Below the pieces are notes generated by a model, which worked only from the letters and a program-made list of their open reading frames with translations, did no database searches and had not been told where the DNA came from. A DNA stretch of 8,940 nt from a virus (lineage: Duplodnaviria; Heunggongvirae; Uroviricota; Caudoviricetes): IMG/VR virus record IMGVR_UViG_2700989521_000019. One strand, 5' to 3'. The translations under genes and the position numbers were made by a program. This document shows positions 1 to 8,940 of this stretch, in pieces (the stretch's first letter is position 1; each line of letters starts with the position of its first letter).

Positions 1-1218
1 ATGAACAAACTGAGCGATACCTTGCTAAGGAAACTTCATGGTAAGCCAGCGGAGAAAAACACGTTTTATAGTGATGGCGGAAACCTGAGCGTGAAATATT
101 TAACATCAGGGAAATTGACCTGGTATTTCACATACAGGGCCGGAACGGGAAGGGAGACACGACCCGAACGCATTAAGCTGGGAAGTTATCCTGATCTGAG
201 CCTGAAATCAGCCAGGGAAAAAGCCGCCCAGTGTCGCGCATGGCTGGCAGAGGGGAAAAATCCACGTCATGAGCTTAATTACACCGTACAGGAAGCGTTA
301 AAGCCGGTAACGGTTGGCGATGCGCTCACCTACTGGCTTGAGTATTACGTAAAGGAAAACCGCGTGGATTATATCGCCCTGAAAAGGCGACTTAATAATC
401 ACGTAATACAGCAGATTGGTGCTATGCCGCTGGATAAATGCGAGCTACGGCACTGGCTGGCCTGTTTTGACCAGGTGGCAAAGCGAACGCCTGTTACTGC
501 CGGATTCGTGCTACAGGCGTGCAAACAGGCGCTTAAGTTCTGCCGTAGGCGGCGCTATGCAATCAGCAACGTTCTGGACGATCTGAACGTGGCGGACGTT
601 GGGAAAAAACCGGATATAAGCGAACGTGTCTTAAGTAACAAAGAACTTGGCGAATTATTGCAGGCACTGGACAAAAAAATATTCTCCCCTTACTACGTCG
701 CGTTAATCCGCCTCCTGATTGTCTTCGGAGCCAGAACGGTAGAACTGAGGTTATCGGAGATCGGGGAGTGGGATTTTACGGAAATGCTATGGACCGTTCC
801 GAAGGAGCACAGCAAAACGAAGGTCGCAATATTCCGGCCCATACCGGAAGCGATCCTGCCGTTCGTCACGCAGCTGGTGGAGCAGAACAGGCACACGGGC
901 TTATTGCTGGGGGAAGTGAAACAGGAGGCCAGCGTATCGCAGTATGGAAGATTAGCGCACAGGAGGCTTAATCATCCTCACTGGTCACTGCATGACATCC
1001 GGCGCACCTTTACAACCATGCTGAACGATTTAGGCGTTGATCCGCATGTCGTGGAGCAGCTTACAGGCCACCAGATGCCAGGAATGCAGCGAGTTTATAA
1101 TCATTCCCGTTATCTGGATGCTAAACGCAATGCGCTGGATATGTGGACGGAGCGGTTAGGGATACTGGCGGGAACACATGAAAACGTAACCACGCTACCA
1201 GTAGCCAGAAGAAAATAA
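1..1218 (+). CDS. int: Tyrosine recombinase / phage integrase, P4-like family (405 aa). Begins at window edge so the true start could lie upstream.
   Basis: N-terminal arm-binding-type region (LSDTLLRKLHGKP...FYSDGGNLSVKY...WYFTYR) typical of P4-family integrases; C-terminal catalytic signature with box I Arg (GARTVELR), HxxR (LHDIRRTF), GHQ and terminal Tyr (RVYNHSRY). Long uninterrupted ORF with the expected int-alpA neighbourhood. Confidence 0.9.
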   Translation: MNKLSDTLLRKLHGKPAEKNTFYSDGGNLSVKYLTSGKLTWYFTYRAGTGRETRPERIKLGSYPDLSLKSAREKAAQCRAWLAEGKNPRHELNYTVQEALKPVTVGDALTYWLEYYVKENRVDYIALKRRLNNHVIQQIGAMPLDKCELRHWLACFDQVAKRTPVTAGFVLQACKQALKFCRRRRYAISNVLDDLNVADVGKKPDISERVLSNKELGELLQALDKKIFSPYYVALIRLLIVFGARTVELRLSEIGEWDFTEMLWTVPKEHSKTKVAIFRPIPEAILPFVTQLVEQNRHTGLLLGEVKQEASVSQYGRLAHRRLNHPHWSLHDIRRTFTTMLNDLGVDPHVVEQLTGHQMPGMQRVYNHSRYLDAKRNALDMWTERLGILAGTHENVTTLPVARRK

Positions 1219-1235
1219 TTTTTTTCGTGTTTTTT

Positions 1236-1251
1236 CAGTATGCGCATACTG
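1236..1251. repeat. Perfect 16-bp palindrome CAGTATGCGCATACTG just downstream of the int stop; candidate protein-binding site
   Basis: Read directly: cagtatgc|gcatactg is its own reverse complement; preceded by a T-rich tract and followed by a partial repeat gtatatgcga. Confidence 0.5.
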
Positions 1252-1260
1252 TATATGCGA

Positions 1261-1310
1261 ACAGATACAACGTGCAACAATGAGCAACAATGTGGAACAA
1301 CCACGAACAA
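1261..1310. repeat. Five tandem 10-bp units each ending in (A)ACAA (acagatacaa cgtgcaacaa tgagcaacaa tgtggaacaa ccacgaacaa); helically phased repeat array
   Basis: Read directly; the 10-bp periodicity places AACAA on one face of the helix, consistent with phased binding sites or intrinsic bending, in the int-alpA intergenic region. Confidence 0.5.
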
Positions 1311-1584
1311 GAGGCGAAAAAGCATACAGATTTATAAGTGGCTGATTTTTAATGTGTCACTGGTTTTTTATACACTAGCGAATCACTCTTTAAAGAGCGA
1401 GAAAAAAGGCATGAAACAATATTTTATGCCTTTGTATTAACATGAATTTAAAATATTTTATTCTTACTGTTTCATTTTCTGTAAATCATACATCCTCAAT
1501 ATTTGCCATTCATCACTCTAGCGGGAACAATACGACACAATAAGACACCTGATGACTCTTTAAGAAACGAAAGGGGGGGCAATA

Positions 1585-1773
1585 GTGTTAAGCACTGATC
1601 GGTTTATACGTGAAAAAGAATGCGAAAAACTAACCGGCCTTAGCCGTACGTGTCGCTACCGCCTGGAAAAGGCCGGACAATTCCCATCACGTCGTAAACT
1701 TGGCGGTCGTTCCGTTGGCTGGTCTTTATCCGAGGTTCTGGCCTGGAAGGATAGCTGCAAGGCAGTTCATTAA
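1585..1773 (+). CDS. alpA: AlpA/Vis-family transcriptional regulator (prophage CP4-57-type regulatory protein / excisionase-like), 62 aa, GTG start
   Basis: Sequence FIREKECEKLTGLSRTCRYRLEKAGQFPSRRKLGGRSVGWSLSEVLAWKDS matches the AlpA-family pattern (LTGLSRxTIYRL...FPxPxKLGxRSVGWxxSEVxxW). Strong SD-like AAGGGGGGG 5 nt upstream of GTG 1585. Position immediately after int is typical. Confidence 0.8.
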   Translation: MLSTDRFIREKECEKLTGLSRTCRYRLEKAGQFPSRRKLGGRSVGWSLSEVLAWKDSCKAVH

Positions 1774-1919
1774 TCACGCTGGCGGCACGCAGCCGCCACA
1801 CATCAATCATCTGAACACAGAGCTATAACCATGAAGATTGAATATACGCCAGAACGTGGGCGGGGATTCGTTCGCCCTGGTGAAACTGAAAAACAACAAA
1901 ATTGGGGTTTTTCAGGTAT

Positions 1920-1948
1920 AAAAAAAGCGGCCCCGAAATGGAGCCGCC
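1920..1948 (-). terminator. Intrinsic terminator for the minus-strand unit (RHH-like gene and downstream)
   Basis: On the minus strand the RNA reads ggcggcuccauuucggggccgc followed by UUUUUUU: about 8-bp GC-rich stem (one G-U), 5-nt loop, 7-U tail. Confidence 0.5.
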
Positions 1949-2273
1949 TTTCTGAACAGATAACCCGCTGCGCCGTTTGTGTGTGTGATCCCAAACATAA
2001 GCACGGGGATGATAGCCGCTATCAGGCTGGTGGGCAATGCAATCAGTCTGGTTCAGTTCGTTGCCATACCTGCAATGAGCGCTTTTCCCTGTACTCTTTA
2101 AGGAATTGCTCAAGGGCAAAAGCACATGGTGCGAATCTTTCTGATTCATGCTCTATCTTTCTGCGCCGTCTTTTCCGTGCCGGTGATAATGTTTTGGTCA
2201 ATTCTTTATCGGTCATTGTGTTGTCCTGCATAGCAATGCGCCGTAATACCTCACACCACGGCGCTGATAGTGA

Positions 2274-2453
2274 TTATTCTGATTCTTTGGCCTTGCGGCG
2301 CTGGCGGCGTTTGATCTCGCCTTCAAGTGCCGAAACGATAAATTGCCCTGTACTTTCGCCATCTTCCTTTAAATTTTCTACAGCATCAGCTATTGCGTGT
2401 GGTACTCGAGCCTCAAGCTTTTTGGATTTTGCATTAACTGCTTTTGTTGCCAT
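2274..2453 (-). CDS. Small ribbon-helix-helix-like DNA-binding protein (59 aa), candidate repressor of the divergent promoter region
   Basis: Chosen start is the internal ATG (MATKAVNAKSKKLEARVPHAIADAVENLKEDGESTGQFIVSALEGEIKRRQRRKAKESE) with GAGGAA SD 7 nt upstream; the longer 106-aa ORF upstream part is hydrophobic low-quality sequence. Pattern beta-strand (KLEARVP), helix (HAIADAVENL), helix (STGQFIVSALE) resembles CopG/Arc RHH fold; basic C-terminal tail. Family assignment is from pattern only. Confidence 0.55.
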   Translation of the reverse strand: MATKAVNAKSKKLEARVPHAIADAVENLKEDGESTGQFIVSALEGEIKRRQRRKAKESE

Positions 2454-2474
2454 ATCTGATTTCCTCGTTATTAG

Positions 2475-2554
2475 GTGGCTGACAGTATACACACAAGAAA
2501 ACGGAAAAACACTATTGACGTGGCTGACACCCGTTACTAATATAGTGGCTGACA
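2475..2554. promoter_or_regulatory. Divergent promoter/operator region: three direct repeats GTGGCTGACA (2475-2484, 2520-2529, 2545-2554) overlapping a sigma70-like plus-strand promoter (-35 TTGACG 2515-2520, 17-nt spacer, -10 TAATAT 2538-2543)
   Basis: Read directly. Repeat 2 abuts the -35 and repeat 3 abuts the -10/TSS of the rightward promoter; repeat 1 lies in the leader/promoter zone of the leftward RHH-like gene. Promoter hexamers are by consensus matching only. Confidence 0.5.
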
Positions 2555-2647
2555 CCTTTATCAAGGTAATCGATGAAAAGACAAAGCCCCGCAAGTGTCG
2601 TTACCACTCGCAGGGCTTCTAACCAACAACGTAAACTAGGAGCCGTT

Positions 2648-2845
2648 ATGGTTGCTGTAAATCATATACCACACCTTGTACACACACAAACGGCCTTTGT
2701 GTGGCGTTTTCTGGCACTGAGTGCCGGAGAATCTCAAATCATCCACGTAACCGCCTGGACGGAACGCGAAGCGCGTAACCGTTGCCCGTCCGGTTGTGTT
2801 GCTGTATTTGCCGCCCGTATTCGTCAGGAGGTGCGCCATGATTAA
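2648..2845 (+). CDS. Small protein (65 aa), first gene of rightward operon; possibly Icd-like (cell-division-inhibitor-like) family, assignment uncertain
   Basis: ATG 2648 with TAGGAG SD 7 nt upstream; MVAVNHIPHLVHTQTAFVWRFLALSAGESQIIHVTAWTEREARNRCPSGCVAVFAARIRQEVRHD. The FVWRFLAL motif recalls small Icd-like proteins annotated in P4-like elements; from memory, not verified. Confidence 0.5.
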   Translation: MVAVNHIPHLVHTQTAFVWRFLALSAGESQIIHVTAWTEREARNRCPSGCVAVFAARIRQEVRHD

Positions 2846-3050
2846 TCTGTCACTTACTGACCTTAACCGCATTCAGTTTCGTGAGAAATTCACAGGGCAG
2901 CTACTGGTCAATGTGGATAAAGGTCGCGTGGTGTGTAATTACCACTTACCAGATGAAGCAATTGTCGCCACAAGGGAATCATTACAGGAAATCACAAAAC
3001 GTGCCGGAATGATTAACACGAATATTCAGGGGATGCTTTATGCACAATAA
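2838..3050 (+). CDS. Hypothetical protein (70 aa)
   Basis: ATG 2838 overlaps the stop of the upstream gene (translational coupling); AGGAGG SD 6 nt upstream. MINLSLTDLNRIQFREKF... No recognised family. Confidence 0.55.
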   Translation: MINLSLTDLNRIQFREKFTGQLLVNVDKGRVVCNYHLPDEAIVATRESLQEITKRAGMINTNIQGMLYAQ

Positions 3051-3279
3051 AACCACACCGGACGCAGCCGCCGAAGCCATCAAAACGCTGATGCACGCGC
3101 TGATTGATATTTCTGTTATCGCGGACAGGGCACATAAGCACGCCACCAGCGAAACAGAATATGCCGGTGCTTTCGTTCCTCACTCACTGGCTGTCATGCA
3201 ATTTAGTGCTGATACGGCGCTGAATGAGGCCAAAGCTATCCTGATTGCTGATTGTGAAAATGGGGGGGGTTATGCGTGA
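3040..3279 (+). CDS. Hypothetical protein (79 aa)
   Basis: ATG 3040 overlaps upstream stop (3048-3050); CAGGGG SD upstream. MHNKTTPDAAAEAIKTLMHALIDISVIADRAH... No recognised family. Confidence 0.5.
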   Translation: MHNKTTPDAAAEAIKTLMHALIDISVIADRAHKHATSETEYAGAFVPHSLAVMQFSADTALNEAKAILIADCENGGGYA

Positions 3280-3505
3280 TGATCGTTTTAATTCCCTGAA
3301 ACAGGAATTTTCCGGCGTTCCTGATGATGCGGCTGATGCGCTTTCGTCAATGCCAGAACTTATTAGAGCGGCTTTTTTCTTACTTTCCACGAGAGAATAT
3401 AAATCAACGGGGCTTGATGTACTGAATATCGCCGCCGATTATGCGGAATATGTGGCAGAGGCGCGTTATAGAAGAAAATTTCCTGAGGATGTAAGCCATG
3501 CGTGA
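3272..3505 (+). CDS. Hypothetical protein (77 aa)
   Basis: ATG 3272 preceded by a GGGGGGGG run (3262-3269); overlaps the previous gene by 8 nt. MRDDRFNSLKQEFSGVPDDAADALSSMPELIRAAFFLL... Start chosen by RBS; the ORF track start at 3245 is an alternative. Confidence 0.5.
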   Translation: MRDDRFNSLKQEFSGVPDDAADALSSMPELIRAAFFLLSTREYKSTGLDVLNIAADYAEYVAEARYRRKFPEDVSHA

Positions 3506-3731
3506 TATTTACCACCAAACAATAGACCGCGCATTTCTTGCACTTTCTCACAGTGAAAACATGATGGAAATATTGCGCATATGGCTTGAAACACTTGGCG
3601 ACAATGAACGCGACAAACAAAAATCAAGAATTGCCACAGCATTAATAACGCTTCTTGAGCCTGTAATAATGGAACTGCAAGAAATAGATCTATTGCACGA
3701 CAGATATAAAGAACAGCACACCGGAGAATAA
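3498..3731 (+). CDS. Hypothetical helical protein (77 aa)
   Basis: ATG 3498 overlaps the upstream stop; GAGG upstream. MRDIYHQTIDRAFLALSHSENMMEILRIWLETLGDNERDKQ... No recognised family. Confidence 0.5.
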   Translation: MRDIYHQTIDRAFLALSHSENMMEILRIWLETLGDNERDKQKSRIATALITLLEPVIMELQEIDLLHDRYKEQHTGE

Positions 3732-3736
3732 AAATA

Positions 3737-4036
3737 ATGAAACTTAAATATTCTGGCTTAACTGCCAGTGGCAACACTCACCCTAAATTTACGCGCGGTG
3801 ATATTTACCGCGACCAGTACGGCGGCACGGTAATGATTAAGGACGTGGAAGAACGGCGCGTAACCTACCGCCGTGAAGGTTACGAATATGATTGCGTGAT
3901 GCCTGTTTATCAGTTCCGGCGTGATTTTTCTCTGGTACAGACCGCGCCGCATAACGTGCCCACCAGCAACGCCAGGGCACGGGCAAACATCCAGAAGCTG
4001 AAAACCATGGTTAACGGATTCAGGGGCAAGAAATGA
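3737..4036 (+). CDS. Hypothetical protein (99 aa)
   Basis: ATG 3737 with GGAGAA SD; the stop overlaps the start of the ATPase gene (ATGA-type overlap at 4033-4036). MKLKYSGLTASGNTHPKFTRGDIYRDQYGG... No recognised family. Confidence 0.55.
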   Translation: MKLKYSGLTASGNTHPKFTRGDIYRDQYGGTVMIKDVEERRVTYRREGYEYDCVMPVYQFRRDFSLVQTAPHNVPTSNARARANIQKLKTMVNGFRGKK

Positions 4037-5433
4037 AAAGCGCACCGAACTTAAAAAAACAGCCTTACGACAAGATGACCGAAGTCATTATTTTTGCGGG
4101 TAGTGATGCCTGGGCACATGCGAAACAGTGGCAGGAACAGGACGGGCGACTGGCTGGCGATAATGTGCCTCCCGTTGTGCTGGCTGATGATCAACTGGAT
4201 GAACTGGCAGACCTGAGAATCATCGACGAGGGGCGCTATTGTGTCCGGCTGTACAAGGCAGGCCACATCAGGCCATCAAATATTAATGCCATTGCGCACA
4301 AGCTGGCGGCGGCGGGTGTAACTGATGCGAATTATTACCCCGAAGGGATGCACAGCCATATGCGGGAGAACTGGCGCGAATACCTGGAACGGGTGCGCGG
4401 GAAAGAGCCGGCGGAAGAAAAAAACCACCAGCGAAAAACCACGCTACCGATGAGCGTTGGATCTACCGGATACGACACGCAACTGGATTACGTGGTTAAG
4501 GGGATTATTCCGGCGGTATCGCTATGCAGCATATACGGGGCTAGCGGGTCCTATAAATCATTCCTTGCCGGATCGTGGGCGTGCCATGTTGCCACTGGTC
4601 GCCAGTGGGGAGGCCGCAGGGTTGCACATGGTGCGGTTCTCTATGTGGTTGGTGAAGGCGGTATAGGTGTTCCGCGTCGTGTAAAAGCCTGGGAGGTTGT
4701 GCACGATGAGCAGGTGAAAAATCTGTATCTGGTAAACCGCCCCATCTTTCCGGCTGCCCCGCTTGATGTTGATGAAATGGTTATCGCTGCCCGTCAGGTG
4801 GAGCGGGAAACGGGTAAACCTGTACGCATGATTATTCTGGATACGCTGGCGCGTTGCTTTGGTGGGAATGATGAAAATGATTCCCGTGATATGGGGGCGT
4901 TTATCCGTGGTTGTGACGAACTGAAACGACGCACAGGGGCCACGGTGCTGGTGGTTCACCATTCCGGCAAGGATGAGACGAAAGGCGCGCGCGGTTCCAG
5001 TGCATTTCGTGCTTCGCTGGATGCTGAATACCGGATACGCAGGGAGGACGCAGGAAGCGAAGCGCTGGTTATCTCATGCACCAAAATGAAGGACGCGGAG
5101 GAACTCAAAGAAGCCGCATATGACTTACGCGTGGTGGAGCTTTTTACCGACGCTGACGGTGAATTAATCACGTCGCTGGTGGTGGTGGATGATCCGCGCC
5201 CTCCTGTTGAACTGGAGCGCATCGAGGAGGCAGGGAACAAGACGGAAAACCATACCGCGCTATGGGGGTGCATCCGTTCACGCACACAGAACGGCGACAA
5301 GTGCACGATCCCGCTGTTACGTGATGACATGAAAAAGCTGGGGTATGAAATGAAAAACTTCCGGCGCTGGCTGTACAAGCTGGAAAAAGATGGGGTTATT
5401 CGTATCGATGGGGATGATGTAGCGCCGCTATAA
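4033..5433 (+). CDS. RecA-fold / AAA-type ATPase, RepA- or DnaB-like replicative helicase-initiator of the element (466 aa); no recognisable primase domain
   Basis: Walker A-like GASGSYKSF (YGASGSYKSFLAGSW), Walker B-like hydrophobic strand plus acidic residue (VRMIILDTLARCFGGNDEND), downstream VLVVHHSGKDETKGARGSSAF resembling DnaB/RepA-type motifs. About 160-aa N-terminal domain of unassigned function. Long ORF with AGGGG SD. Confidence 0.85.
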   Translation: MKSAPNLKKQPYDKMTEVIIFAGSDAWAHAKQWQEQDGRLAGDNVPPVVLADDQLDELADLRIIDEGRYCVRLYKAGHIRPSNINAIAHKLAAAGVTDANYYPEGMHSHMRENWREYLERVRGKEPAEEKNHQRKTTLPMSVGSTGYDTQLDYVVKGIIPAVSLCSIYGASGSYKSFLAGSWACHVATGRQWGGRRVAHGAVLYVVGEGGIGVPRRVKAWEVVHDEQVKNLYLVNRPIFPAAPLDVDEMVIAARQVERETGKPVRMIILDTLARCFGGNDENDSRDMGAFIRGCDELKRRTGATVLVVHHSGKDETKGARGSSAFRASLDAEYRIRREDAGSEALVISCTKMKDAEELKEAAYDLRVVELFTDADGELITSLVVVDDPRPPVELERIEEAGNKTENHTALWGCIRSRTQNGDKCTIPLLRDDMKKLGYEMKNFRRWLYKLEKDGVIRIDGDDVAPL

Positions 5434-5622
5434 AAGTGAGGAGCAAAAGCGAGGGGGATAGAAAGAGGGCCAAAATTAGCCCGCTCTCCCTCACTTTTCG
5501 ACCTGTATACATCCTCAAAAGTGAGGGGTAAAAAAATACTTATGAAACACACACATAGAAAAACCGAAAATCCCAACTGCGACGAAGTGAGACGCTTGAA
5601 AAAGTGAGGCGAAAAAGTGAGA
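5433..5622. repeat. Iteron-like cluster: six copies of core AAGTGAG (consensus AAAGTGAGG) at 5433-5441, 5489-5497 (inverted), 5518-5526, 5585-5593, 5601-5609, 5614-5622, plus degenerate copies (AAAGCGAGG 5446-5454); candidate ori or operator array
   Basis: Read directly in the 200-bp intergenic region between the replicative ATPase gene and the ssb-containing operon. Confidence 0.55.
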
Positions 5623-5633
5623 GGTTGCGAGAA

Positions 5634-5885
5634 ATGACCCAAAAACGCAGAGACAGAACAGAGCCAAAATATAAAGCGTTAGACATGACTGAGCACACCT
5701 TAAAGGTGGCAATCAGAACGATAGACCGCCACACGCGGGAAGGATACGCGAAGGAACATCCCGACCTGATAAGCGCATTCATGACCACGGTGGCGGCAAA
5801 CTTTGCCACGCTGACAGAACGGGAGATTGCCGAAGCGGAACAGGTAACAACCATCAACGTTAAAACCGGAGAGGTGGAATTATGA
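5634..5885 (+). CDS. Hypothetical protein (83 aa); start ambiguous (GTG 5604, ATG 5634 or ATG 5685)
   Basis: ORF in frame with plausible GAGAGG SD before ATG 5634; stop overlaps the ssb-like start. MTQKRRDRTEPKYKALDMTEHTLKVAIRTIDRHTREGYAKEHPDLISAF... No recognised family. Confidence 0.45.
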   Translation: MTQKRRDRTEPKYKALDMTEHTLKVAIRTIDRHTREGYAKEHPDLISAFMTTVAANFATLTEREIAEAEQVTTINVKTGEVEL

Positions 5886-6292
5886 CGGCACAGATAGCCG
5901 CTTACGGGCGGCTGGTGGACGACCCGCAGGTAAAACAGACCAGCAAGGGCACACCGATGACGCTGGCGCGTATGGCGGTATCTTTGCCATGCAGCCAGGC
6001 ACAGGACGGACAGGCGACGTTATGGTTATCGGTCATCGCATTTGGCAAACAGGCCGACTTCCTGGCTAAACATCAAAAAGGCGATGTTGCCAGCGTATCC
6101 GGCACGATGCAGGTAAGCCAGTGGACCGGACAGAACGGAGAAACGCGGCAGGGCTGGCAGGTTATCGCAGACAGCGTAATCAGTGCCCGCGCGGCACGTC
6201 CAGGCGGGAACAGACGCAAAACCACAGGCACACAGGGTAATCAGCCACCAGCGGGAGGCGATGACCCTTACGGTGATGATATTTCGTTCTGA
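5882..6292 (+). CDS. ssb: Single-stranded DNA-binding protein-like (SSB family), 136 aa, element-encoded
   Basis: N-terminal OB-fold-like pattern (IAAYGRLVDDPQVKQTSKGTPMTLARMAVSL...WLSVIAFGKQADFLAKHQKGDVASVSGTMQVSQWTGQNGETRQ), Gly/Gln/Pro-rich linker and acidic C-terminal tail DDPYGDDISF resembling the SSB tail DDDIPF. GGAG SD; start overlaps upstream stop. Confidence 0.7.
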   Translation: MTAQIAAYGRLVDDPQVKQTSKGTPMTLARMAVSLPCSQAQDGQATLWLSVIAFGKQADFLAKHQKGDVASVSGTMQVSQWTGQNGETRQGWQVIADSVISARAARPGGNRRKTTGTQGNQPPAGGDDPYGDDISF

Positions 6293-6302
6293 GGGGGTGA
6301 CG

Positions 6303-6575
6303 ATGGTACATGACCGCATAGCGGAGGAACTGGAGGCGAAAGGCTTTTACCGGAGGGCGGCGGCGCGATGGGGTGAAGTCATGCAGCTGGTGGAGACAGG
6401 CAAGGAACGGCATCACATCACGATGCGACGGCTGGAATGTTCAAGGAAGGCACAGAGGGCACCGGAGCCGCCGGATAATTTCGGAGACCTGAAAAAGGCA
6501 GTCGATCGCACTTATGCCGAAATGGGTATAGATGGTGCTGGTGATGAAATATGGCGCAATTACCAGGACAGCTAA
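6303..6575 (+). CDS. PerC-family transcriptional regulator-like protein (90 aa)
   Basis: Start ATG 6303 with GAGGGGG SD 5 nt upstream (the longer ORF from 6183 overlaps ssb and lacks an RBS). N-terminus AEELEAKGFYRRAAARWGEVM matches the conserved PerC motif (EEKGLWRRAAxRW) as remembered. Confidence 0.65.
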   Translation: MVHDRIAEELEAKGFYRRAAARWGEVMQLVETGKERHHITMRRLECSRKAQRAPEPPDNFGDLKKAVDRTYAEMGIDGAGDEIWRNYQDS

Positions 6576-6581
6576 TCAAAC

Positions 6582-6605
6582 AGCCGGAGAAATCCGGCTT
6601 TTTTT
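6582..6605 (+). terminator. Rho-independent terminator after the perC-like gene
   Basis: AGCCGGA-GAAA-TCCGGCT (7-bp stem, GNRA tetraloop) followed by a T6 run. Confidence 0.75.
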
Positions 6606-6701
6606 GCACCAGTTGAAACGGTATGGCGCATTACCGGGTTTTCGTCACGGTCAGGCATAGTTACTATCTGAAACAAACAGACACAACAGAGGAAAAAAAC
6701 A

Positions 6702-6926
6702 ATGCCGATGAAATTTGATGAGATATTAAAACAGCGTGATAAATACCATGCTGACAACATGGAGACGATGAGCATCAATGATTACCGCGCATTCCTGGAG
6801 ACGGGCGCACTGATTGAAAAGGATCAGCATGGTTTTGTGAGATGTGCTCTATCCGGTGAAATGCTGGCGGTAAATCCTGAACAGATAGATGCATTGATAG
6901 AATTTCTGAAAGAGATCAGAGACTGA
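6702..6926 (+). CDS. Hypothetical protein (74 aa)
   Basis: ATG 6702 with GAGGAA SD; MPMKFDEILKQRDKYHADNMETMSINDYRAFLETGALIEKDQHGFVRCALSGEMLAVNPEQIDALIEFLKEIRD; bounded by terminators on both sides. No recognised family. Confidence 0.55.
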   Translation: MPMKFDEILKQRDKYHADNMETMSINDYRAFLETGALIEKDQHGFVRCALSGEMLAVNPEQIDALIEFLKEIRD

Positions 6927-6945
6927 GCCAGCACACAGCACACAT

Positions 6946-6968
6946 AGCCGGAGCAATCCGGCTTTTTT
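6946..6968 (+). terminator. Rho-independent terminator, near-duplicate of the one at 6582-6605
   Basis: AGCCGGA-GCAA-TCCGGCT (same 7-bp stem, GNRA loop) followed by a T5 run. Confidence 0.75.
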
Positions 6969-7007
6969 GCGCCCAAAAAAAGCCCGGCGAGTCAGATTTC
7001 ATCAATC

Positions 7008-7208
7008 ATGGACAGCCTCCCGCTTACTATGCAAAGGAGCTTCCCACAGATTACCCCCGCCATGCTGGATAGGCTTAAAAGGGAAGTGGTTAAAGCCTGT
7101 AATGCCAGTGCCAGAGTTGCCGACAACCTCCCACAGATACTGGCTGATTACTTGAAAGAAACAACCGGAAACGTACCGGAAAAGTTGCTACAGAAGAAAG
7201 GCGAGTAA
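7008..7208 (+). CDS. Hypothetical protein (66 aa); weak call, start and RBS unclear
   Basis: ORF only; no convincing SD for ATG 7008, 7029 or 7062. MDSLPLTMQRSFPQITPAMLDRLKREVVKACNASARVADNLPQILADYLKETTGNVPEKLLQKKGE. Confidence 0.3.
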   Translation: MDSLPLTMQRSFPQITPAMLDRLKREVVKACNASARVADNLPQILADYLKETTGNVPEKLLQKKGE

Positions 7209-7463
7209 CAGACGCGCAATTATTGAACAAAACTGAGAAACGACATGAAAGCGTCATAAATCGCCATTTTAGATGATTACCGTGTCGTTTCTTTTTATTG
7301 TGTATCTATTTAAAAACAAATAGTTATGTTCGAGAAGTACCGACATGCTTTTTCCAGAAAAATTTTCATAAACAGATAAAAACCGCGAGGTCGCCGCCCC
7401 GTAACGGGCCATAATTCCAGGAAGGACCCGACGACACCAGACTATCAGAGCGATGGGGGCACA

Positions 7464-7745
7464 ATGACAGAAGCCGAACTACTGGGATTAATCCGCCGCG
7501 TTACCGGAATCAGCCAGCAGCATGACGAACAGGCCACGCAGCCGGACAGCGTGACCGCCGAAAATTACGCGCGTGTGGTTGCTGAGGTGATGCGCCGTGA
7601 TGGTATCCAGCTTAATGATGTGGATATGCGCAACATACGGATCCGCGTTCTTGAAATGCTGGCCTACAATCGCCGCGTGGCACTGTATCGGGAAACGGAG
7701 AAAATTACGTACCACTGGAAGAAGCCGGAGCGGTTACGGCGTTAA
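7464..7745 (+). CDS. Hypothetical protein (93 aa)
   Basis: ATG 7464 preceded by a GGGGG run; ORF with balanced composition (MTEAELLGLIRRVTGISQQHDEQATQPDSVTAENYARVVAEVMRRDGIQLNDVDMRNIRIRVLEMLAYNRRVALYRETEKITYHWKKPERLRR). No recognised family. Confidence 0.45.
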   Translation: MTEAELLGLIRRVTGISQQHDEQATQPDSVTAENYARVVAEVMRRDGIQLNDVDMRNIRIRVLEMLAYNRRVALYRETEKITYHWKKPERLRR

Positions 7746-7800: not shown

Positions 7801-8574
7801 GACGGTTTAACCGTTAATTAAAAATTGACGGGATTTTGTGCTTTCCGGACGACGTGGCCAACGCCATTTTTTAGCGAAAAGTTCTGATTAAGGTCATTGT
7901 CTGAATGGTCATAATGACCACTCCTACAAAACAGGTAAAGCCCACCAGCCTGATTAACAGTTAACCGGAAAAAAATCCGGTAGCCCCGTTATGGGGATCC
8001 CCATATCAACATTAACGCCCCTCATGAATTAGCGCGCTTCCCCCTGGAAAGATGACCCGCCTGTATATTTCTTGTGTCTATTTGTTCCACGTTGTTTCAT
8101 ACAGTGCACCGAACGGTGTAGTCACTGGTGTAGTCATTTTGCGATTTATGGCACTTTTTGTAGTGAAAACCCCGTTTTTTCTTCCTTTGCTAATAATAAT
8201 GTCTTTTTCGCTCCGTCATCATAACGAAAATCAAACCGCTCAGGTAAAGAAGTGAAAATATTTTGAGTTAATTCTTAAGCTATGATACAAATCAGGCGTG
8301 TTCAACTACCGAGGACAATTATCATCCGCGATGACGAGAAGCAACACTGCGGATAATTGTAATATTATGGACAATTTGTTCAGGACCTTATTTTCAACAT
8401 TTACCCATCTTCGTACCTCATCCACTATCTTGCTCGTAGGTGAGCAGCACTGGCGCAACGCGCTTTAGTCCTTTCTTCTGCCTAAGCTTGCCCTATGCGC
8501 GGGGCTTGACCACTTTACTTTGATTTCGCTGAATTAAGCGAAAATTAAAATAATTCTCTTGCAGGAGAAGGACA

Positions 8575-8940
8575 ATGTATATTTATTGGATTTTATTAGG
8601 CCTGGCTATTGCTACAGAAATTACCGGTACGCTGTCAATGAAATGGGCGAGCGTCAGTGAGGGAAATGGCGGCTTTATTTTAATGCTGGTGATGATTTCT
8701 CTGTCGTATATATTTCTCTCTTTCGCCGTTAAAAAGATCGCCTTAGGCGTAGCTTATGCGCTGTGGGAAGGTATCGGTATTTTATTTATTACCTTGTTTA
8801 GCGTTTTGTTATTCGACGAAAGTTTATCGCTGATGAAAATTGCCGGGTTAACCACCCTGGTCGCCGGGATTGTGTTGATAAAATCAGGTACCCGTAAAGC
8901 GCGTAAACCTGAACTGGAGGTGAACCATGGCGCAGTTTGA
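8575..8940 (+). CDS. mdtJ: Multidrug/spermidine efflux SMR-family transporter subunit MdtJ (121 aa), complete
   Basis: Translation ([33 protein letters not shown]...[21 protein letters not shown]) matches Escherichia coli MdtJ as I remember it; small four-helix hydrophobic SMR protein; AGGAGA SD 7 nt upstream; stop TGA 8938-8940. Confidence 0.93.
8927..8940 (+). CDS. mdtI: Start of mdtI (SMR partner subunit), truncated by window end; only codons MAQF visible
   Basis: ATG 8927 overlapping the mdtJ 3-prime end, reading MAQF, consistent with the remembered MdtI N-terminus and the mdtJI operon arrangement. Only 14 nt visible. Confidence 0.45.

Follow-up and report, generated by a model that had tools for sequence, protein, structure and literature searches.

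EPEC PerC (BfpW), which is encoded in the perABC operon of the EAF plasmid pMAR2, is an activator of LEE1. The related proteins PchA, PchB and PchC (group 1 Pch) are encoded by lambdoid prophages of EHEC. Activation of LEE1 by PchA depends on H-NS/StpA/Hha silencing being in place; PchA lowers H-NS occupancy there, and it did not co-precipitate H-NS (PMC4764244). The group 3 protein PchE of O157:H7 has been reported to behave otherwise: it has little effect on LEE (Iyoda and Watanabe 2004; Porter 2005; both as cited in PMC6265319 and PMC11773190), and LEE1-lacZ fusions were not affected by the PerC-like genes that EcCIEDL933 and EcCICFT073 carry (Porter 2005, as cited in PMC11773190). The phenotypes known for PchE come from plasmid overexpression in O157:H7 (strain PA20); those of deletions were weak, about 2-fold (PMC6265319, PMC7369912). 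On overexpression of pchE, csgD decreased more than 7-fold and csgA more than 280-fold, Congo-red binding was lost in a ler-independent way, and both biofilm and adhesion to HEp-2 cells were diminished (PMC6265319). Overexpression also raised fliC about 20-fold, flhDC more than 2-fold and motility, with stpA decreasing 2.5-fold (PMC7369912). The native gene shows basal expression in uninduced cells, which falls 3- to 7-fold upon SOS induction (PMC6265319, PMC7369912).

PerC homologs have also been described on PICIs of E. coli (PMC6092414, PMC11773190, PMC13612085), and a PchE-type PerC gene on a satellite is already known, PchE having been studied experimentally. Some PICI homologs activate LEE according to PMC6092414, and EcCIMP1_025 represses LEE1 in C. 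rodentium (PMC11773190). The role of AlpA in activation of PICI genes is taken from EcCICFT073; PICI origins sit 3' of the rep gene, and induction depends on helper-driven alpA expression and not on SOS (PMC6092414). Among these islands, helper-phage induction and mobilisation are on record for EcCICFT073 alone (PMC6092414). The island of E. coli 042 was named EcCI042 and is related to EcCICFT073, both being equated with O-island 51 (Fillol-Salom et al. 2018, PMC6092414).

In this work, we analysed an 8,940-nucleotide stretch of viral DNA (IMG/VR record IMGVR_UViG_2700989521_000019), referred to below as the window, which carries a PerC-family gene directly behind ssb. Most probably this gene is a pchE ortholog, carried as optional cargo by an EcCI042/EcCICFT073-type PICI in tqsA and serving as a modifier of host physiology. 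The features of the window are collected in Table 1.

Table 1. Features of the window in order of position
Feature	Position	Strand	Basis and remarks
Tyrosine integrase gene	1..1218	+	Pfam Arm-DNA-bind_3 and Phage_integrase; start annotated in 042 is 12 nt upstream of the window
alpA, AlpA-family activator of PICI genes	1585..1773	+	Pfam Phage_AlpA, 61.8 bits
Several small ORFs	between alpA and 3737		
rgdR ortholog, DUF4222, 99 aa	3737..4036	+	Pfam DUF4222, 83.3 bits; RGD at residues 20-22; 80% identity to ECs1581
RepA-family helicase gene, satellite replication protein, 466 aa	4033..5433	+	Pfam AAA_25, 148.5 bits; phrog_2850, 887 bits; annotated in 042 as 'helicase RepA family protein'
Iteron-like repeats, AAAAGTGAGG or AAGTGAG core	5432..5624	.	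Repeat search; five direct copies and one inverted, flanking an A+T-rich stretch
orf83, first cistron of the orf83-ssb-perC unit, ECs1586 homolog	5634..5885	+	phrog_1231, 176 bits; same start annotated in E. coli 042
ssb, satellite single-stranded-DNA-binding protein, ECs1587 homolog, 136 aa	5882..6292	+	Pfam SSB, 60.6 bits; TIGR00621, 57.3 bits
Shine-Dalgarno-like GGGGGTG, purine-rich	6293..6299	+	Read from sequence; 3 nt 5' of the perC ATG, directly past the ssb stop
perC-family gene, pchE ortholog (group 3 Pch), 90 aa	6303..6575	+	ATG at 6303, TAA at 6573-6575
Intrinsic-terminator-like hairpin AGCCGGAGAAATCCGGCT, then TTTTTTT	6582..6606	+	Terminator scan; begins 6 nt past the perC stop
orf74, ECs1589 homolog	6702..6926	+	phrog_1957, 144 bits; same position in Sakai Sp7 and 042
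Second, near-identical hairpin AGCCGGAGCAATCCGGCT and T-run	6946..6969	+	Terminator scan and alignment with the first hairpin; 3' of orf74
Small-terminase-like gene, 3' remnant	7008..7208	+	Last 66 of about 170 codons; phrog_1790 and phrog_57 match at C-terminal profile positions only
orf93, last conserved satellite gene, ECs1599 homolog	7464..7745	+	phrog_1561, 190 bits
Host gene mdtJ	8575-8940		

The satellite element and its packaging region

The element takes up about 8.2 kb between tqsA and mdtJ, and in E. coli 042 it is tqsA that the island interrupts. Positions 1-6986 of the window are 99.9% identical to E. coli 042 at the nucleotide level. The features by which PICIs of Gram-negative bacteria are recognised are present, namely int, alpA, an own replicon with its probable origin 3' of rep, a size within the range of about 8-15 kb and site-specific insertion, and there are no lysis or tail genes. 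Judged by its sequence, the element is a PICI of the EcCI042/EcCICFT073 type inserted in tqsA, a member of a described family, and the proposal that the PerC-like gene travels on a horizontally acquired element is thereby borne out. The repeat region located 3' of the helicase gene is probably the replication origin; it lacks a conserved counterpart in Sakai Sp7, where the replicon is another one.

The element of PchE (OI-51, CP-933C, Sakai Sp7 = EcCIEDL933) is, like that of the window, an int/alpA/rgdR satellite. The two differ in the replicon, which has a RepA helicase in the window element and a primase in the PchE element, and in the integration site, which is tqsA in the former and beside phoQ in the latter. 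Furthermore, the head/packaging module is deleted in the window element, unlike in the PchE element. Positions 5632-6967 of the window are 93.9% identical to Sakai Sp7/OI-51 at the nucleotide level, and orf93 shares 92.6% nucleotide identity with Sakai Sp7 15542-15824.

The left breakpoint of the deletion, which amounts to about 3 kb, lies at 6986/6987. In E. coli 042 and in PE164 this region holds genes for a major-capsid homolog and for head decoration together with adjoining ones, and in PE164 terS as well; in the window, positions 6987-7352 alone stand in their place. Of the intact packaging and interference functions expected of a PICI (capsid homolog, decoration protein, TerS/Rpp), what remains is the 66-codon 3' remnant of terS, the product of which matches the C-terminal end of PE164's 170-aa ORF over all 66 residues but one. 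At the right junction, the 042 island has a 184-bp stretch that is missing from the window. Based on these comparisons, the window copy is probably a deletion derivative whose packaging and interference functions have been lost. The deletion is not an assembly artefact: a Logan contig of run SRR6929856 matches the window at 100% identity, and chromosome CP026840.1 does so at 99.99%. In the set of complete E. coli genomes no record spans the whole window, the best coverage being 96%.

The PerC-family protein and its named relatives

The product of the gene matches the Pfam PerC family (PF06069) with E=4.3e-42 and 142.7 bits (cut-off 22.6). The alignment takes in residues 1-89 and profile positions 1-89 of 90, which is the full length; the product also matches phrog_994 of PHROG (155.7 bits). 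Since the similarity spans the full length, it is not limited to a short N-terminal motif. The PerC family is small, with 97 clusters (50% identity) at E<=1e-3. Wherever at least 80% of the 108 relatives compared share a residue, the window protein keeps it, namely D4, A7, E8, L10, E11, G14, R17, R18, A19, A20, R22, W23, V26, R36, R42, R43, C46, M74, G75 and R85. At position 33 the window allele has Gly in place of the Asp of 78 out of 108 relatives, and the activity of this G33 allele could differ from that of its D33 relatives. The family assignment made in the original prediction is confirmed at the sequence level, the gene encoding a genuine full-length PerC-family protein of the PchE (group 3) type.

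The start was taken as 6303 because the additional residues of a GTG-start alternative overlap ssb and lie outside the family profile. This longer ORF (6183-6575, 130 aa) was rejected, the profile as well as the PchE annotation beginning at 6303. None of the ORFs overlapping perC (6532-6660 on the plus strand; 6418-6609, 6180-6416 and 6026-6319 on the minus strand) has a Pfam match at E<=1.

Four reference proteins were used for comparison: EPEC PerC (pMAR2, E2348/69), PchA ECs1091 (Sakai Sp4), PchE ECs1588 (Sakai Sp7) and EcCIMP1_025 (E. coli MP1). With PchE of O157:H7 Sakai the window protein shares 80 of 90 residues (89% identity) in a gap-free alignment, both proteins being 90 aa long; G33, where PchE has D, is one of the ten substitutions. 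The protein of EcCI042 (WP_000233304.1; E. coli 042, also PE164) is 99% identical (89/90 residues), D33G being the sole change in the window. Alignment to PerC and the Pch proteins, which had been suggested as a check of the family assignment, gave full-length similarity in both cases and not an N-terminal motif alone. EPEC PerC (89 aa), a member of the same Pfam family, is 39% identical over residues 2-90 (BLASTP, E=7e-24), with the motif KGFYRRAA-RW identical. PchA is 41% identical over residues 1-90 (BLASTP, E=6e-26), where the alignment stops; at 104 aa, PchA extends further by a C-terminal tail of 14 residues that is absent from the window protein. The gene of PchA is located in a lambdoid prophage (the lambda-like Sp4) beside lysis genes, whereas that of the window protein is on a PICI. 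The C-terminal extension, the close identity and the lambdoid-prophage location, by which the group 1 proteins PchA/B/C are distinguished, are all absent here. EcCIMP1_025, a PerC-family protein borne by the PICI EcCIMP1, is 46% identical to the window protein, and its gene, unlike the perC of the window, has no adjoining ssb.

The AlphaFold2 model (21 homologs; mean pLDDT 81.6) consists of five helices at residues 5-13, 16-27, 33-51, 60-73 and 79-87, of which the first three are predicted at pLDDT >90. A sequence-profile search of the PDB with the window protein gave nothing below E=0.5, and a Foldseek comparison of the model with the PDB gave no match at E<1. The model has no recognisable classical DNA-binding fold. 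Foldseek also returned partial matches of low rmsd, but these involve TPR-like helix pairs of a generic kind, and no weight was given to them.

Residues 7-52 also align weakly to the whole profile of the ANR family (e.g. Aar; NCBIfam NF033650; E=4e-4, 20.1 bits), whose members are, as the window protein, small and helical. The protein could thus be conceived as an ANR-like anti-activator or repressor akin to EcCIMP1_025, with H-NS or activators of the AraC family as its binding partners and with genes for virulence or adhesins being silenced. The identity to EcCIMP1_025, a silencer of LEE1-lux in C. rodentium, is in line with such a role, as are the repression of csgD, lpfA1 and eae by overexpressed PchE (PMC6265319, PMC7369912) and the three-helix N-terminal unit, the confident part of the model, which is roughly as long as the ANR profile with its 54 positions. 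We nevertheless consider an ANR-like repressor improbable, as the score is under the curated cut-off of 32 bits for membership and two activators, PerC and PchA, score just as weakly (18.2 and 13.6 bits), with PchE at 17.9 bits. Moreover, the conserved C-terminal half of the 90-aa protein is left uncovered by the profile, and PchE strongly activates flagellar genes. For the same reason, that the two activators score equally weakly, the ANR match was rejected as a means of discriminating repressors from activators; in sequence terms it is a distant resemblance of the whole family, uninformative on this question.

Transcription unit and distribution of perC

The order ECs1586-ssb-pchE-ECs1589 of Sakai Sp7 is the same as in the window, and in both the gap from the ssb stop to the ATG of the next gene is 10 nt. 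The hairpin 3' of perC folds as RNA with -13.3 kcal/mol (z = -3.4), the one 3' of orf74 with -15.9 kcal/mol (z = -4.8), while the terminator scan gave no plus-strand site from the helicase gene up to perC. A scan of the plus strand of 5434-5633 for the sigma-70 consensus gave no promoter for the orf83-ssb-perC unit, the transcription of which may begin in this region or run through from the helicase gene. In O157, RNA-seq and 5'RACE of the ortholog revealed one polycistronic ECs1586-ECs1587 (ssb)-pchE RNA, the transcription start of which maps 10 nt upstream of ECs1586 (PMC7369912). Homology of Sakai Sp7 with the window begins at the start codon of orf83, and the O157 promoter region, a replicon-specific intergenic sequence, is not conserved in the window. 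Because of the 10-nt gap after ssb and the terminator hairpin directly 3' of the gene, perC very probably forms the 3'-terminal cistron of the transcript that carries ssb. The predicted co-transcription with ssb is thus supported by the sequence and, by analogy, by the 5'RACE published for O157.

The orf83-ssb-perC-orf74 module (at least 80% coverage) was found in 536 out of 5426 complete E. coli genomes, in 353 of them at an identity of at least 99%. Near-identical copies (99.8% nucleotide identity) are present in genomes of O26:H11 (11368), O145 and O157:H7. These serotypes include LEE-positive EHEC. The exact perC protein of the window occurs in 81 blocks of a public assembly index.

How constant the gene is was surveyed in 80 IMG/VR loci with a near-identical ssb (SSB identity of 85% or more). 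A PerC-like gene (72-99% identity) follows ssb at a distance of 13-15 nt in 70 of these, and it is missing in 10. Seven of the latter were examined. In five, those with a clear junction, the same hairpin as in the window (GGCCGGAGAAAATCCGGC and a T-run) comes within 8-10 nt of the ssb stop, with capsid genes directly behind it in four (L052, L059, L072 and L074). In a capsid-forming relative (E. coli E2528-C1), a ProQ/FinO-family gene is located 3' of ssb in place of perC. The accessory genes recorded for PICIs of Enterobacter include both PerC and ProQ/FinO (PMC13612085). Since 10 of the 80 loci do without perC and ProQ/FinO takes its place elsewhere, the gene is, as far as such comparisons go, optional cargo: common, dispensable, at a variable position and outside the replication machinery despite its place in the operon. 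It was also observed that orf74 travels with perC, both being missing from loci of the L052 type.

The same data bear on the question whether perC serves the satellite itself. Co-expressed with the replication genes, its product might turn on satellite morphogenesis and packaging or the late genes of the helper phage, and the position of the gene at the boundary of the replication and capsid/packaging modules, its tight linkage to ssb in 70/80 loci and its conservation across satellites with differing replicons and packaging modules would suit such a regulator. Against this, those perC-less loci that were examined keep their capsid genes, a capsid-forming relative has ProQ/FinO instead, and a terminator separates perC from the downstream genes. 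The O157 gene is expressed without induction and is lowered by SOS, and in the window the packaging module is deleted yet perC is intact, the exact allele being present in the 81 blocks of the assembly index given above. A regulator of the satellite life cycle is therefore very unlikely, and optional cargo remains the reading that we prefer.

A more speculative idea, to which we attach rather little credence, is that small global regulators are exchanged at the position behind ssb, a slot occupied mostly by PerC/PchE, sometimes by ProQ/FinO and otherwise by nothing, with a reused terminator hairpin (GCCGGAG-AAATCCGGC and T-run) as its boundary. The regulator in the slot would retune the surface behaviour of the host (curli off, flagella on) for the spread of the satellite or its helper, and not LEE virulence.

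Predicted action on the host

The reading of the gene as a pchE ortholog implies an action on the host. Its product is probably a small all-helical regulator which would act in trans on chromosomal regulons of the host, being dispensable for the satellite and having neither a replication or packaging function nor the role of a LEE master switch. By analogy to PchE, csgD, curli and biofilm would be repressed, flhDC/fliC and motility raised and stpA lowered, with a small effect on ler/LEE. The cross-talk with host circuits expected in the original prediction is in this respect plausible, as the ortholog, when overexpressed, shifts curli, flagella and stpA; what does not hold is ler/LEE as its target.

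The gene had been suggested to act as a PerC/PchABC-like activator of ler, so that carriage or induction of the element would switch on LEE type III secretion. Full-length similarity to PerC and PchA is compatible with this, as are the occurrence of the same module in O26:H11, O145 and O157:H7 genomes, the 2.1-fold increase of ler upon pchE overexpression (PMC7369912) and the statement that LEE is activated by some PICI PerC homologs (PMC6092414). In the same overexpression experiment, however, eae decreased 2.7-fold (PMC7369912), and PchE, at 89% identity to the window protein, is reported to have little or no effect on LEE1 and the LEE operons (Iyoda and Watanabe 2004 and Porter 2005, as cited in PMC6265319 and PMC11773190). 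The window protein is also devoid of the C-terminal tail of PchA, the related EcCIMP1_025 represses LEE1, and the LEE1 activator mapped on OI-51 by Flockhart et al. is RgdR (ECs1581) and not PchE (PMC3378721). We regard a ler activator as quite unlikely. Neither did the suggested tie between element induction and host gene expression find support, the expression of the ortholog being basal and decreasing on SOS induction, contrary to what such a tie would predict, although PICIs are induced through helper-driven alpA expression and not through SOS (PMC6092414).

A PerC-family label on a satellite should accordingly not be taken to mean activation of LEE: curli and flagella are what the nearest ortholog with experimental data acts on, and the LEE-activating gene of this family of elements, rgdR, is itself present in the window. 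Apart from correct annotation, the perC of the window is of little significance.

As to how a PchE-like protein would work, it may alter nucleoid-associated silencing complexes or partner regulators, in the manner of PchA, which relieves silencing by H-NS/StpA/Hha, and of the distantly similar ANR proteins. The general mode of action shared by PchA and the window protein is likely modulation of silenced chromatin, as judged from the PchA data (PMC4764244), and we infer this mechanism by extrapolation from PchA at 41% identity and from the sub-threshold ANR match. Two findings speak against this mechanism: H-NS was not co-precipitated by PchA (PMC4764244), and motility goes up with PchE, which simple H-NS antagonism would not predict.

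Regulatory genes of the element

The protein encoded by the DUF4222 ORF shows 80% identity to ECs1581, the RgdR protein of the E. coli O157:H7 Sakai satellite Sp7 (O-island 51), where RgdR activates LEE1 and represses motility (PMC3378721). The known LEE cross-talk gene in the window's element family is rgdR and not the PerC-like gene (perC), for which the original prediction had suggested such a role as a possibility. In the PerC-like gene, codon 33 (6399-6401) specifies Gly, while among the family members Asp is found in 78 of 108 and Glu in 11 of 108. This residue opens helix 3 in the predicted structure of the protein, and the Gly33 allele is widespread: the public assembly index has it in 81 blocks.

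Features of the satellite island in the window
Feature	Position	Strand	Remark
263-codon ORF after alpA	1831-2622	+	in E. coli 042 annotated only as truncated pseudogene
YlcI/YnfO-family gene	2274-2594	-	annotation; opposite strand to the 263-codon ORF
Icd-like gene	about 2646-2845		annotation; next after the 263-codon ORF region
DUF4222 ORF, rgdR ortholog	3737-4036	+	99 aa, RGD at residues 20-22
Terminator hairpin 1	6582-6606	+	after perC
Terminator hairpin 2	6946-6969	+	after orf74
terS-like 3' remnant	7008-7208	+	66-codon ORF within 6987-7352

Putative replication origin

Between the helicase gene and orf83, at 5432-5624, AAAAGTGAGG or its AAGTGAG core occurs in five direct copies and one inverted copy, which surround an A+T-rich stretch; this region is probably the replication origin of the satellite. 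Sakai Sp7, whose replicon is of the primase type, carries unrelated repeats instead.

Optional genes downstream of ssb

The optional genes perC and orf74 are flanked by repeats of a near-identical terminator hairpin, GCCGGAG-A/C-AATCCGGC followed by a T-run, and in five related loci devoid of both genes (L052, L059, L072, L074 and L078) nearly the same hairpin lies directly 3' of ssb, at about 2915-2945. The hairpin repeats could serve as recombination points in the gain or loss of optional genes. The related, capsid-forming satellite of E. coli E2528-C1 (NZ_CP035870.1, locus L008) shares with the window a homologous orf-ssb pair, but there ssb is followed by a ProQ/FinO-family gene (6640-7170 of L008) in the slot of perC.

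Deleted packaging region and insertion site

Compared with E. coli 042 and PE164, the window lacks about 3 kb and has 6987-7352 in their place. The genes lost are a capsid homolog, a head-decoration gene and one hypothetical gene, and in comparison with PE164 also the 5' part of the terS-like gene. As judged from this gene content, packaging and interference functions have probably been lost from this island copy. The identical deletion is found in CP026840.1 and several draft assemblies.

The island is inserted in tqsA, which encodes the AI-2 exporter, and disrupts this gene. At the right junction of the island (about 8165-8170) a 184-bp stretch of the E. coli 042 locus (L001 13798-13981), which in that strain contains the remaining 5' fragment of tqsA, is also absent. 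In one draft genome (GCA_000193895.2, AERM01000008.1, locus L091, 4240-8583) the ssb-perC-orf74-orf93 island end, severed on its left side by IS elements, adjoins otsBA and flhDC in place of the remaining satellite.
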